From NCBI GenBank assembly GCA_048882485.1, contig JBHLRP010000018.1, positions 1 to 49,116 of the forward strand: a stretch of DNA of 49,116 nt, in the 5' to 3' direction. The position numbers and the translations under genes were made by a program. Shown in pieces: positions 7,953-22,959 of this stretch (the stretch's first letter is position 1; every line of letters begins with the position of its first letter). Origin of the DNA: Candidatus Thorarchaeota archaeon (GTDB lineage Archaea; Asgardarchaeota; Thorarchaeia; Thorarchaeales; Thorarchaeaceae). Below the pieces are notes generated by a model. The model was not told the origin of the DNA. It saw nothing but the letters and a program-made list of their open reading frames with translations, and searched no databases.

Positions 7953-9146
7953 ATGGCGGAAACACTTACCAAACCATCTCGTCGCATACGAAATATGGTG
8001 GCGAAGGAACTCCGCCTCATAGTCAAAGACAAGGTGGCACTCTTTCTCATTTTCCTACTGCCCGCAGCACTCATCGGTATGCTCTGGTGGGTGAGTGATA
8101 TGAGTGAAATTGGAGGAACCTCTCTGGGAGGGGGAGGTGGTGCAATGGGAGGAGGCTCTGGAGATGGCGGAGAGAATGAGACAGTAGAGGGCACCGGAAT
8201 TGTCCTTGGTATAATAGACCAAGACACGACACGTACCTACAGCGGAGAGGATTTGTCTGAGAACTTCACGGCATTTGTAGAATTAATAGTCGATGAGCTT
8301 GTGGTGTTCGACGATACTGAGGTTGCGTTCGATGCGTTATACAATCAGGAGATAGACGGTTTTATTGTAATACCGGATGGTTTTGAGAGAAACCTAACAA
8401 TAAACGAGCCTACTTACATAGAGATGCATGTGGACTCTACGGACCTTATTGGCCAAAGCATAGTCCAAGGTGTCGTTCAAGGGTCGATCATCGCATTCAG
8501 GGCATCCAAACTATGGATTATCTCAGAAGTATTCCCCAACGTGGTGACTGAGTTCGTTCCTGAGGGTTCAACCTTGATGGCTTCATTTGGAGGGTTCATT
8601 GTTGTCTTCTCATCTTACCTTGGAATTGCGATGACAGCAGCACAGAGCATTGTTGGAGACATTCCACTCAGGAGAATGCTTTTGACGCCCACGAATAGAC
8701 TGGAAGTAATTGTCGCCAAAGTGTTGGGCTATGTAGTTATTGGATTCTTCCAATCTCTTCTACTGATTTCTCTGTGGGTCATTGTCTTTGACCTCAATCT
8801 GAATACAGGATTCGAGTCCCTTGTAATAATAATGAGTCTCACGTCACTGACCGGCTCGACCACTGGAATCCTCATCTCTGCTGTGGCGGGCACTAGATTG
8901 CAGGCCAATCAGATGTTCCTATTCGTGATGTTCGCAACTGTGATTCTCTCGGGCTTCTTTATCGATGTGGGATTCCTAAATGAGATACTTCCGATGAATC
9001 TGGGACTGAATGTGTTAATAGCTACAGCATTCAAGGGGCTAACACTATTGGATGTCTGGCCATCCATAGTGACTCTATTGGGATTCACAGTCTTCGCTGT
9101 CTTAGCTGCATCGTTCATATTCTCCAAGAAACCAACTCTTGATTAG
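7953..9146 (+). CDS. ABC-2 type transporter permease (YhhJ-like, with extracellular domain)
   Basis: N-terminal KELRLIVKDK + TM, extracellular domain (GIIDQD...FIVIPDGFE...VDST), LRRMLLTPTNRLEVIVAKVLG, five further TMs, LSGFF. Confidence 0.9.
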   Translation: MAETLTKPSRRIRNMVAKELRLIVKDKVALFLIFLLPAALIGMLWWVSDMSEIGGTSLGGGGGAMGGGSGDGGENETVEGTGIVLGIIDQDTTRTYSGEDLSENFTAFVELIVDELVVFDDTEVAFDALYNQEIDGFIVIPDGFERNLTINEPTYIEMHVDSTDLIGQSIVQGVVQGSIIAFRASKLWIISEVFPNVVTEFVPEGSTLMASFGGFIVVFSSYLGIAMTAAQSIVGDIPLRRMLLTPTNRLEVIVAKVLGYVVIGFFQSLLLISLWVIVFDLNLNTGFESLVIIMSLTSLTGSTTGILISAVAGTRLQANQMFLFVMFATVILSGFFIDVGFLNEILPMNLGLNVLIATAFKGLTLLDVWPSIVTLLGFTVFAVLAASFIFSKKPTLD

Positions 9147-9155
9147 GTGAGTAAA

Positions 9156-22200: not shown

Positions 22201-22959
22201 GATCTGGACTTACTTACCGACTACGAAGAACTCTTCATCTACTTCACCAATCCAAATCTTCCAGACACAGATGAGGACTCCCTCTACGACGGATTCGAGG
22301 TGGAAGTGCTAGGGAGCAATCCCCTGTCAAATGATTCAGACTCAGATCTGTTGGCAGATGGCCTGGAGTATCACACCTATGGCACGGACTTGTTGCATGA
22401 GGACACAGATCGAGATGGCTGGACGGACTACGAGGAAGTGGCGATCTACGGCACGAACCCGATGCAGGCGGACTCAGATCAGGATGGAATCATGGACTCG
22501 CTGGACTTCAATCCAAGGACACACTGGATAGTCCCAATAGCGGGTCTGATACTGGTCGCAGGATTGGCTGTCGTGGTCTACCGGCGTGTAAGGCGCACAC
22601 ATCGGCCCGAGGGCTTTGTGACTACTGCTGAGCCTGCTAGTCCTGGACTCGAGCCAGGAATGGACGTGGTTGTGGAGTACAAGATTCGGGATGGGAAAGT
22701 GGTGTTCGGTGTAGCTGTGCGGAACGACTCTGCAAACCCCATGAGCAATGTGCAAGTGGTGCTAGGCATCCCAGACCTCACTGACACGATACAGAGCGTG
22801 GCTGCTGGCACTGTGGAGTCCGGTGACATCTCAGTAGTCGAGGTAGAGTTCGAGCTTCAGCCGGGTGCGACTGGGGAACTAGTCGGTATGCTGGAGTATG
22901 ATTCTGTTGAGGGTGAGCACAGGATAGTGAACCTGAAGCCTGTGAAGATTGTCGCTTAA
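16207..22959 (+). CDS. Giant type-I membrane surface protein: signal peptide, FG-GAP-like beta-propeller, ~1700-aa acidic Ca-binding (TSP3-like) repeat stalk, TM helix, cytoplasmic Ig-like domain
   Basis: ATG 16207 overlaps the upstream TGA (ATGA). MRHRDILLALAFVLILAGLSTVAG is a signal peptide. Blades read like ADVDGDSLDEVVVG and GDLDNNGKDEFAAG, followed by ~80 DxDxDxLxD/NxxE..TxP units, a WIVPIAGLILVAGLAVVVYRRVRR TM and a ~100-aa beta-rich tail. Confidence 0.88.
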   Translation: MRHRDILLALAFVLILAGLSTVAGDPSVQPSAMLQRGGSAALSDLTPFDVAEVWTEATGSQVVAVVVDNFDADALDEVAMVTQNATLYLYDSDGALVWRLNITDTPYAMVSLAINAGSVMELLIGTSNGFLVIDSGQNILTDVTLPNAARAVVGADVDGDSLDEVVVGCDNNRVYAYDVSGTELWNHPSNGQVRVVAAADIDADLSDEVLAGSELGRFSLLDNGGGVIFEVTGLSPIRKVDTGNIDGAGEDEVIFGAANGTLWVYTAAGIFQYSREVSGGITALQVADIIGGVTAEIAIGTSANELRVLDNTGSLLWNKSLGGQVSDIDFLNVGGLATEQVLAGSNDGTLTMYNATGQLISQTGLPGFSGSMDFGDLDNNGKDEFAAGNNIGQVACYGQDQDKDRLADARETLIEGTQFNNPDSDLDKLDDGEEVLDYGTNPLAPDSDFDRLSDFAEVITYGTDPNEPDSDSDLLTDWQEIYLGTNPNAADSDLDQLDDYEENNITLTDPNEADSNDNGINDAQDDNDGDGLTNLQEVRLTETDPNDVDSSVPKNGISDYYDDEDSDNLANWKEIQVGSDPLDPDSDDDGLLDGAEVKIHKSSPTDTDTDNDGLSDWDEVKIVGSKPYDADSDDDTLDDYEEYVLYGTNVNLADSDSDDLDDAEEINTYNTDPLNPDSDADTLSDGDEVLIYDTDPNSADSDLDSLDDAAEIAYGTDPNNRDTDGDTIDDGKEILQYKTNATLVDSDFDGIKDPDEIKYLSEGFNASNPHTFNPLILDYDIDLDLDNLTIGQEIYFTRTHPNRTDSDLDGIRDDLEDSDLDGINNYNELYVTNTHPRNPDSDDDKVKDGDEVLKLGTDPNDDDTDDDSISDYDEDFDEDNLPNGVELYITNTSATNAYTYGGIRDDDYDSDSDSLPNYFEVFLSQTDPLYNDTNDNGIYDWEEDPDGDELTNLEELIWDTDPLDADSDNDQLTDAEEVFDTHTDPNDSDDDDDGTLDGQDDQDNDGLTNLEELRTYDTNVTLWDTDGDMIRDGIEIQVGLNATNPDSDDDGLYDGWNDGNSNGVYEPLLGERGEDVDADGVIDPWETDPQNPDSDEDELEDGEEYLYGTNPLKADSDSDKLLDGEEVFDYGSSPLLNDTDGDLLDDFIEVNVTLTDPTLVMTNGTHSDYVVDSDGDGISNGDEIYIYDTSPGDLDSDDDNIGDGLEILVYGSDPLDSDSDGDLLSDYDEIIRYGTNATAQDSDGDQLDDYIEIEVLGTNATRWSTYLNGTSDYDLDVDGDGLSNGLELNGYHSNATNPDSDGDMLLDGTEVYLAGSSPTDQDTDNDGVSDYLEYMVYGTDTTGSDSDSDELSDYYEIYVSLTSPMNWDTDGDLLGDGTEVNEYGTDPNSADSDRDLLDDKREIEIVGTDPLLNDTDADGLSDWEEWVLYETDPLVADVDEDGLNDKEEIENGTDPENEDSDFDALLDYDEVYVYETDPLNPDSDADNIADSDEIFNSHTDPNNNDSDGDGIRDDLDDRDADGLSNFDEIYQYETNCTLFDTDGDMLGDGYEVLISDTNPFEIDSDDDLLSDWDEIFRYSSNPNKKDTDGDLLQDGEEALTWHTLLNDTDTDNDMANDYDEIKVFETNPLDYDTDDDSLSDGQELFVYNTDPLKEDSDSDLLLDAQEVVIGTNPLKKDSDGDSLTDFQENNKTLTDPLLFSTQGNGVSDALWDMDNDKLTNEQELTLTLTNPRVQDSDNDGKIDGDDDEDRDILTNYQECAITKTDPRNRDSDDDGISDYNDDEDDEGLTNGEEILLGTDPLKADTDRDSLDDREEVEDYFTDPLSKDTDLDLLEDAEEVEDYGTNPLSNDTDLDLLSDWEEVVLTLTDPTTNMTYGVLDSLYDSDGDSIGNLEEIRTYGTNPGDPDSDNDDIDDGLEIIIGTDPLNSDSDSDSLLDGAEYYIYDTSPLSNDTDQDMLRDYDELFVYHTSALTNDTDGDLVLDFDEVMVYFTDPQEADVDLDLLTDYEELFIYFTNPNLPDTDEDSLYDGFEVEVLGSNPLSNDSDSDLLADGLEYHTYGTDLLHEDTDRDGWTDYEEVAIYGTNPMQADSDQDGIMDSLDFNPRTHWIVPIAGLILVAGLAVVVYRRVRRTHRPEGFVTTAEPASPGLEPGMDVVVEYKIRDGKVVFGVAVRNDSANPMSNVQVVLGIPDLTDTIQSVAAGTVESGDISVVEVEFELQPGATGELVGMLEYDSVEGEHRIVNLKPVKIVA
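17404..22515 (+). repeat. Intragenic tandem protein-repeat array (Ca-binding DxDxD(G) units)
   Basis: Manual parse: about 65 long (mostly 22-23 aa) units, 15 short (10-14 aa) units and a terminal unit. The array is degenerate at DNA level. Confidence 0.9.

Follow-up and report, generated by a model that had tools for sequence, protein, structure and literature searches.

Among the described ATP-binding cassette (ABC) systems, those closest to the one presented here join an ABC unit to a protein on the outer side of the membrane. GldA, GldF and GldG of Flavobacterium johnsoniae, like the 'ABC-type uncharacterized transport system' proteins of PF09822, combine an ABC-2 permease, an ATPase and a membrane-anchored extracytoplasmic protein with a GIFT domain (the domain type of GldG, IFT52, OST48 and site-1 protease, S1P), and have no binding protein. 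In NosDFY ATP hydrolysis drives a periplasmic partner, and in FtsEX–EnvC the driven partner is a catalytically dead enzyme fold. Here we describe an operon of comparable make-up from Candidatus Thorarchaeota archaeon (assembly GCA_048882485.1), located at positions 7953–22959 (+) of the window, which is the whole stretch of DNA that was analysed (contig JBHLRP010000018.1, 49,116 nt). It encodes an ABC-2 permease, two different ATPases (ATPase-1 and ATPase-2), a type-I membrane protein that joins a disabled subtilase (S8) domain to a GIFT domain (the S8-GIFT protein), and a giant calcium-binding surface protein (the giant). Our preferred reading, which we hold with slightly better than even confidence, is of an Asgard-specific ABC-2 complex with the S8-GIFT protein as a non-catalytic outer subunit, in which the ATP cycle would act on or through the ectodomain, as in GldAFG and NosDFY.

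The listing of open reading frames, their translations and the junction sequences give five co-directional genes separated by 9, 4, 1 and -4 nt, in agreement with an earlier note on this stretch, made from the letters alone. That note's further statements also stand: a single ABC-2 permease is accompanied by two intact and different ATPases (Pfam matches, and motifs read in both), the two large proteins have an N-terminal signal and cytoplasmic tails by hydropathy, and no solute-binding protein gene lies within the operon. In each large protein a signal-like segment stands at the N-terminus and a single transmembrane (TM) segment towards the C-terminus, followed by a tail of about 76 aa (S8-GIFT) or about 125 aa (giant). 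The permease has six TM segments by hydropathy, with an extracytoplasmic loop of about 160 aa between TM1 and the other five, and matches only the ABC2_membrane families of Pfam (ABC2_membrane_3, 86.9 bits; ABC2_membrane, 47.5 bits); its best NCBIfam match is the permease part of RbbA. In both ATPases the Walker A, Q-loop, LSGGE/Q signature, Walker B D-E and H-loop are all intact, and the two are paralogues with 34% identity over the nucleotide-binding domain (NBD) and C-terminal domain. The best PDB sequence matches of ATPase-1 are the NBDs of ABCA7, ABCA3, ABCA1 and ABCA4 (about 1e-52), and in NCBIfam its NBD resembles models of the DrrA, RbbA, NodI and GldA class, each below its family cut-off. 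With a permease of the ABC-2 families and DrrA/ABCA-like NBDs that carry a C-terminal domain, the unit belongs to the ABC-2 (type V) class of transporter.

ATPase-1 differs from ATPase-2 in an additional N-terminal domain, the two halves of which are related to one another (hhalign probability 91%, E 1e-6), indicating an internal duplication. Regulator_TrmB matches this N-domain in 16 of 17 orthologues (best E 1.5e-11), with a score of 33.1 against a gathering score of 22.2 and coverage of profile positions 162–231 only. A profile of the N-domain searched against PDB sequences found nothing significant and did not recover the TrmB structure, and an atlas search with the N-domain gave no usable match. 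The TrmB-like domain may be a binding site for a small ligand or for a partner. ATPase-1 is among the best-conserved components, with 70–88% identity across the Thorarchaeota orthologues aligned.

The subtilase domain of the S8-GIFT protein is catalytically dead. The window protein has Thr in place of the nucleophile Ser and Asp in place of the oxyanion Asn; across orthologues the nucleophile position holds T, S, A, L, D, G or K, mostly Ala, and the oxyanion position D, N, S, G, R or E, whilst the catalytic Asp is Gly or Ser in 3 of 14 aligned sequences and the His is Arg or Thr in some. The full catalytic set was found in no lineage examined of this long form, as distinct from the compact paralogues described below, so that the 'pseudo-subtilase' first proposed for the window now holds more strongly, with residues lost across the orthologues of all lineages checked. 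Mean identity within the family is nevertheless 72% for the S8 domain, against 59–65% for the remaining regions of the ectodomain. A domain that is dead yet best conserved must therefore serve a non-catalytic purpose and, with no working active site in any lineage examined, the S8-GIFT protein would act as a non-catalytic extracytoplasmic subunit. Since there is no nucleophile, the propeptide is presumably not self-cleaved and may stay in the cleft. An active site-1 protease was considered and rejected, as all lineages have replaced Ser and Asn and some have lost Asp or His as well. Public records name these proteins 'S8 family serine peptidase', 'DUF4350 domain-containing protein' or 'hypothetical'; to judge from the residues at the active site the long-form 'serine peptidases' cannot be peptidases.

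Downstream of the S8 domain lies a region of about 525 aa predicted to form beta-sandwich domains, and then the GIFT domain, membership of which was judged by the Pfam families PF23355, PF09822 and PF14258. IFT52_GIFT (PF23355) scores 32.0 bits on the isolated region against a cut-off of 27.2 and matches 19 of 20 orthologues, and ABC_transp_aux (PF09822) matches 15 of 20, with orthologues from two families (f7 and f30) scoring 37.6 and 37.9 bits, over the gathering score of 34.7. A profile of the region finds IFT52 (1.8e-14) and human MBTPS1 (2e-4) among PDB sequences. These profile matches identify the C-terminal domain as a genuine GIFT domain.

The layout and predicted packing of the S8-GIFT protein are S1P-like, a likeness supported by structure prediction and one that goes beyond what the earlier note had found. 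An AlphaFold2 (AF2) model of residues 141–1340 (predicted local distance difference test, pLDDT, 76.6; predicted template modelling score, pTM, 0.70) has as its top Foldseek matches in the PDB the human S1P–SPRING structures 9csd_A (7.6e-24) and 8uw8_A (6.8e-21). With VIA-align, 580 residues superpose on 8uw8_A (root-mean-square deviation 4.7, Z 39.8), model positions 5–1098 falling on chain positions 190–874; the superposition runs as one body from S8 through GIFT, whereas about 270 residues align with plain subtilisins. S1P consists of a prodomain, S8, a P-like subdomain and a GIFT subdomain, followed by TM and tail, and is the only proprotein convertase with a GIFT subdomain (PMC11231238). 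The S8-GIFT protein shares with S1P (MBTPS1/SKI-1; 8UW8, 9CSD) the order of propeptide, S8, beta domain(s), GIFT, TM and basic cytosolic tail. It differs in its dead active site, in a beta insert much longer than the P-like subdomain, in a longer helical tail, and in an S8 domain nearer in sequence to Tk-SP and subtilisins than to S1P. Tk-SP (3afg, 9ues) and subtilisins are indeed the best PDB sequence matches of the S8 domain, and a specific sequence affinity to S1P was sought and not found, S1P being absent from the best 60 PDB matches of both the long and compact forms. We know of no partnership between S1P and an ABC transporter.

The earlier note had proposed a survey of gene neighbourhoods across Asgard genomes, and this survey finds the five-gene module syntenic across Thorarchaeota and its core in further Asgard families. 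The order permease, ATPase-1, S8-GIFT, ATPase-2, giant, with near-abutting or overlapping genes, is the same in all nine sampled genera of the Thorarchaeota family f1 and also in f2, a sister family within its order, where components are 45–88% identical to those of the window; the permease is syntenic in all Thorarchaeota loci examined, ATPase-2 is syntenic across the loci examined, and the close relatives of the locus lie in metagenome-assembled genomes of Candidatus Thorarchaeota. Family f12 has permease, ATPase-1, S8-GIFT and ATPase-2, and Ca. Hermodarchaeum yapensis the first three of these before its contig ends. In Ca. Lokiarchaeum ossiferum (core module at about 474.3–484.6 kb of CP104013.1) and in family f24 the order is ATPase-2, two different permeases (permA, permB), ATPase-1 and S8-GIFT, and in family f19 an operon of ATPase-1, permease and ATPase-2 stands divergent from the S8-GIFT gene. 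Linkage is thus kept across at least six Asgard families, the rearranged divergent form included. Because the same order recurs in nine genera and beyond, the arrangement is not a product of chance, and adjacency kept through rearrangement is good evidence of a functional tie.

Co-occurrence leads in the same direction. One sample of 301 Asgard genomes was searched with the post-S8 part of the S8-GIFT protein and with the profile of the ATPase-1 N-domain. The two were found, respectively, in 72 and 73 of 76 genomes of f1, in 17 and 17 of 19 of f12, and in every genome of f7 (5/5 for each), f19 (6/6), f2 (1/1) and f30 (1/1). In the Loki-type family f9 each occurs in 3 of 68 genomes, the same three genomes of one genus, and no other contrast is as telling as this one genus within so large a family. 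Family f24 has the S8-GIFT protein in 1 of 7 genomes (a very divergent one, found with a single-sequence query) and the N-domain in 6 of 7; f21 has no S8-GIFT protein in its three genomes and the N-domain in all three, as short frames of 158–166 aa. Neither was found in the 21 other Asgard families of the sample. Together with the synteny, these patterns support the view that the ABC-2 transporter and the dead S8-GIFT protein would form a physical, or at least obligate functional, unit.

Table 1. Features of the operon, its surroundings and related loci. Positions without a locus prefix refer to the window.
Feature	Position	Strand	Basis or remark
ABC-2 (type V) permease, 397 aa	7953..9146	+	Pfam ABC2_membrane_3 1.9e-24
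ATPase-1, 564 aa: ~240-aa N-domain, NBD, ~90-aa C-domain	9156..10850	+	ATG at 9156; gap 9; ABC_tran 4.9e-24
ATPase-1 N-domain, tandem duplicate, TrmB C-terminal-subdomain-like	9156..9875	+	Pfam Regulator_TrmB (PF11495), hhalign
S8-GIFT type-I membrane protein, 1456 aa, catalytically dead	10855..15225	+	gap 4; Peptidase_S8 and IFT52_GIFT
Subtilase (S8) domain with active site disabled; best-conserved part of the S8-GIFT protein	11275..12234	+	Peptidase_S8 1.1e-40
Beta-sandwich domains between S8 and GIFT, ~525 aa	12235..13809	+	AF2 secondary structure; no Pfam match
GIFT (GldG/IFT52/OST48/S1P-type) domain	13972..14574	+	profile against PDB; Pfam IFT52_GIFT
TM helix, basic stop-transfer RRRQRKR, ~76-aa helical cytoplasmic tail	14932..15222	+	hydropathy, alignment
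ATPase-2, 327 aa: NBD and C-domain	15227..16210	+	gap 1; ABC_tran 1.2e-27
Giant type-I membrane protein, 2250 aa	16207..22959	+	ATGA overlap of 4 nt with ATPase-2; beta-propeller and TSP3_bac
Cytoplasmic tail domain of the giant, beta-rich, 125 aa	22582..22956	+	64-79% identity within Thorarchaeota
785-aa protein, divergent from the operon	5399..7756	-	without Pfam/NCBIfam match
YhhN-family membrane protein	22949..23701	+	overlaps end of giant gene by 11 nt
TPR protein, 422 aa, 3' of the operon	23765..25033	+	Pfam TPR families; syntenic in most Thorarchaeota loci
Ras-family small GTPase, family f12	L022:10085-10609	-	Pfam Ras 6e-48
CotH-kinase and lamin-tail-domain protein, 890 aa, L. ossiferum CP104013.1	L039:16903-19575	+	3' of the module
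Genes flanking S8-GIFT in f19/f7	L106:10398-11348, 12230-15514	-	
Genes flanking S8-GIFT in f19/f7	L023:11282-12109, 7602-10727		
Genes flanking S8-GIFT in f19/f7	L110, L111		
Compact S8-GIFT paralogue of the source genome, ~965-1027 aa	L116:7158-10241 (contig C2, about 187158-190241)	-	outside the window
Compact S8-GIFT, 1257-1337 aa	L112:8515-12330		cytoplasmic zinc ribbon in 3 of these 4
Compact S8-GIFT	L113:8491-12429	-	
Compact S8-GIFT	L114:1749-5762	-	
Compact S8-GIFT	L115:8284-12057	-	

Compared with GldAFG, the Asgard module has two different ATPases, one of them bearing a TrmB-like N-domain; its GIFT protein is of type I, with one C-terminal TM segment, and contains a dead subtilase and about 525 aa of beta domains; and its host is archaeal. 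The likeness to NosDFY (NosY, NosF, NosD) and, in concept, to FtsEX–EnvC lies in an ABC unit coupled to an extracytoplasmic protein that is not transported, whereas by Pfam the module has neither a beta-helix NosD domain nor an FtsX-type permease, and no copper or cell-wall genes lie nearby. A fusion of GIFT with a NosD/beta-helix region does occur in one remote GIFT relative (P0222). Assignment to the type VII mechanotransmission class (FtsEX, MacB, LolCDE) was rejected, the permease matching ABC2_membrane and having no FtsX domain. The module is a variant of the ABC-2 plus GIFT-accessory systems, unusual in its S1P-like dead protease, its heteromeric NBDs and its TrmB-like, sensor-type domain. 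The combination had been thought undescribed, and we found no description of it in the literature, nor any publication joining Asgard archaea with GldG, MBTPS1 or site-1 protease.

The giant consists of a signal, a beta-propeller, an acidic calcium-binding repeat stalk of about 1700 aa, a TM segment and a cytoplasmic tail. The stalk contains 63 DxDxDxxxD motifs and is 23% Asp, and the protein matches the CglD-type TSP3 repeat model of NCBIfam (5.8e-88, under its cut-off). Comparison of the window with the orthologues in loci L013–L021, L025, L031 and L034 gives a length of 2257 +/- 11 aa (2245–2277, n=12 orthologues) at about 58–67% identity. Such a near-fixed length is unusual among repeat proteins and suggests selection on the length of the stalk and a spacer of defined length. 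The nearest protein-language-model neighbours of the tail domain are the appendage Ig domains of adaptins and coatomer (0.83–0.89). A profile of the tail found nothing significant among PDB sequences and Pfam gave sub-threshold matches only, including Alpha_adaptinC2 at 0.086; the adaptin/coatomer-ear idea is therefore a lead that comes solely from the language model and that the hidden Markov model searches do not confirm. The giant is found in the operon only in f1 and f2, and is missing from the module in the Hermod-, Loki- and other lineages, which makes it a lineage-specific addition rather than a core subunit.

In the preferred reading the core would be a type-V (ABC-2) transporter, with a permease dimer in Thorarchaeota and two different permeases in Loki-type loci, powered by two different ATPase subunits that would both be catalytically competent. 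The S8-GIFT protein would be the extracytoplasmic subunit, in the position that GldG holds for GldAF and NosD for NosFY, and the ATP cycle would either switch the conformation of its ectodomain or hand an amphipathic or glycan substrate to it at the cell surface. The giant, with its propeller head, calcium-binding stalk and cytoplasmic beta-domain, would have been recruited into the operon in Thorarchaeota, and is probably what the module serves, or uses for signalling, at the cell surface. It is because of the parallels with GldAFG, NosDFY and FtsEX–EnvC that an ATP cycle acting on or through the ectodomain is favoured. Gene content, the dead active site, the GIFT domain, the S1P-like predicted fold, the conserved linkage and the co-occurrence are established here, and we infer the physical complex, the direction of coupling, the substrate and the role of the giant. 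As both large proteins have Sec-type signals of their own and the giant is absent in most lineages, exporting them would not be the job of the ABC unit, and it is plausible that this unit is their mechanical or regulatory partner rather than their exporter.

Several observations weigh against this reading. The GldA model (GldA_ABC_ATP, TIGR03522) gives 98.8 bits for ATPase-1 and 131.5 bits for ATPase-2 against a cut-off of 402.6, the NCBIfam models of GldF and GldG have no match at E <= 0.001 to the permease or the S8-GIFT protein, and the S8-GIFT protein of the window scores 17.9 with ABC_transp_aux against the gathering score of 34.7. The comparison with GldAFG made in the earlier note stands for composition and not for membership. 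Families f7 and f30 have their S8-GIFT gene apart from the ABC genes, and in each genome an ATPase bearing this N-domain is encoded elsewhere. Related genomes are not independent samples, which makes the counts of co-occurrence overstate the support. The link of the giant to the module is synteny within one order only. The cytoplasmic tail of the S8-GIFT protein can be aligned down to orthologues at 28% overall identity, and unusual conservation there was expected but not found (58.6%, against 72% for the S8 domain); with a tail conserved no better than the ectodomain, there is no special sign of a conserved cytoplasmic partner. Structure prediction covered single chains rather than complexes, and nothing in the data points to a substrate. 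The two large proteins had earlier been taken for accessory subunits or clients of a heteromeric ABC complex; what survives is the S8-GIFT protein and the ABC-2 unit as a conserved functional set, by synteny, adjacency through rearrangement and matching phyletic patterns, and what does not is the giant as part of the core.

The main rival to the preferred reading, possible though we doubt it, is a genuine exporter of a lipid-linked glycan, a lipid or another amphipathic surface component, with the S8/GIFT ectodomain as the receiving scaffold for its assembly or decoration at the surface; it overlaps our preferred reading, the one point of difference being the task of the ATP cycle. The ABC-2 class, the ABCA-like NBDs and best models of DrrA/RbbA type all fit an exporter, as do the operon without a binding protein and the extra ligand-type domain on one NBD. 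As the carbohydrate-binding domain of Wzt does for the substrate of O-antigen ABC-2 exporters, the TrmB-like domain of ATPase-1 might, in this reading, recognise the cargo on the cytoplasmic side, its binding of sugar being putative. GIFT domains are also present in OST48 of the glycosylation machinery (PMC11231238; PMC7226087), but no glycosyltransferase or lipid-synthesis genes are conserved beside the module in the loci examined. We give less credence to a receptor or signalling device, in which the dead subtilase, together with the propeller stalk in Thorarchaeota, would bind a ligand or a surface outside the cell, with the ABC unit as sensor or transducer. BceAB-type sensing transporters and pseudoprotease receptors such as CspC are precedents for it; the S8-GIFT protein weakly matches the CspC/CspBA models of NCBIfam, the cytoplasmic domains of both large proteins are conserved, and small GTPase, TPR and SNAP-like genes adjoin the module in some lineages. 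These neighbours vary between lineages, however, the module has neither a kinase nor a transcription factor as a conserved companion, and a propeptide that is probably still attached may fill the binding cleft.

The remaining two readings are rejected on distribution and topology. That an ordinary drug or ion ABC-2 pump merely lies beside unrelated surface proteins would suit components that come individually from large generic families, but linkage in at least six Asgard families, rearranged form included, the position of the S8-GIFT gene between the two ATPase genes and the agreement of its phyletic pattern with that of the ATPase-1 N-domain make this very improbable. Slightly less probable still, and largely refuted by distribution, is a system that would secrete and mature the giant, much as a type I secretion ABC transporter acts on RTX-type calcium-binding substrates. 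The giant is extremely acidic with its 63 calcium-binding motifs, and its gene overlaps that of ATPase-2 by 4 nt; against this, the giant begins with a Sec-type signal and is anchored by a C-terminal TM segment, the transporter is of the ABC-2 class, with a separate permease rather than the fused transmembrane domain of type I secretion, the subtilase is unable to cut, and the module of most lineages has no giant.

The surroundings of the module are less constant than its core. The divergent 785-aa protein keeps its syntenic place at every Thorarchaeota locus examined, and no counterpart of it adjoins the module in the other lineages examined. The TPR protein downstream is a possible cytoplasmic partner of the module. 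The YhhN-family gene lies downstream of the operon in some Thorarchaeota loci but not all. In f12 a Ras-family small GTPase gene comes right after ATPase-2, in the place of the giant in Thorarchaeota, and in L. ossiferum the module is followed by a gene for a CotH-kinase and lamin-tail-domain protein and then by VTC-domain and DUF4956 genes. In f19 and f7 the S8-GIFT gene is flanked by genes for a TPR protein that matches SNAP (soluble NSF attachment protein) and for a protein of about 1040–1090 aa, the latter with weak TPR/MIT matches in f7; both are 27–63% identical between the two families. The 785-aa and TPR proteins of the window were considered as core components and set aside, as they are not homologous to these f7/f19 proteins. 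Scans of positions 7600–25200 for promoters and terminators of bacterial type, with models ill-suited to an archaeon, found sites no more numerous than in shuffled sequence.

The long form of the S8-GIFT protein appears confined to Asgard archaea. Searched against 1.84 billion representatives, the post-S8 profile matches about 45 clusters at full length, all the named ones being Asgard (Thorarchaeota, Promethearchaeota, Lokiarchaeia, Helarchaeota and Ranarchaeia); it finds the region of about 525 aa in these clusters only, and beyond them lie proteins that share the GIFT domain alone. A homologue search with the GIFT profile returned Thorarchaeota orthologues only and added no distant relatives, and GIFT follows S8 in none of about 55 bacterial subtilase loci examined. 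Some proteins of 3500–4800 aa (P0176, P0178, P0181, P0185, P0213) have four to eight separate GIFT matches and are apparent multi-GIFT giants.

Among the proteins that the post-S8 profile finds by their GIFT domain alone is a compact Asgard family of 925–1340 aa, which shares with the long form the arrangement of S8, GIFT, TM and basic tail and has neither the long beta insert nor the helical tail; its Asp, His, Asn and Ser are intact, and several members end in a zinc ribbon. None of the compact loci examined is linked to the ABC-2 module. The source genome has such a paralogue, with the LDSG Asp, GHGT His, AAGN Asn and SGTSASAP Ser all intact, a GIFT-type region, one TM segment, a short basic tail (RRKPKRRR) and no zinc-ribbon match, and with the size and layout of eukaryotic site-1 protease; two more large S8 proteins (1057 and 1667 aa) are encoded beside it. 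Asgard families without the long, ABC-coupled form likewise have compact S8-GIFT proteins, of 1257–1337 aa with an intact catalytic set and TM, and at one of these loci (L115) genes for an FtsX-type permease and an ABC ATPase precede on the same strand.

Themes from the study of eukaryote origins are joined in this module: a predicted fold like that of S1P, the GIFT domain of IFT52, OST48 and S1P, and ABCA-like NBDs. Asgard archaea might hold the prokaryotic stock of the S1P layout, as an apparently active compact form and a dead ABC-2-coupled paralogue, from which eukaryotic S1P, and possibly the use of GIFT in OST48 and IFT52, would descend, the dead form being a previously unknown ATP-driven device of the surface or of membrane homeostasis; this is a tentative proposal that we consider rather unlikely as a whole. 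Ca. Lokiarchaeum ossiferum is a cultured organism, and the presence of the core in it makes co-purification, cryo-electron tomography and proteomics feasible. If our preferred reading of an Asgard-specific ABC-2 complex is true, several Asgard classes would share in this module a widespread and lineage-defining membrane machine, to date without functional annotation.

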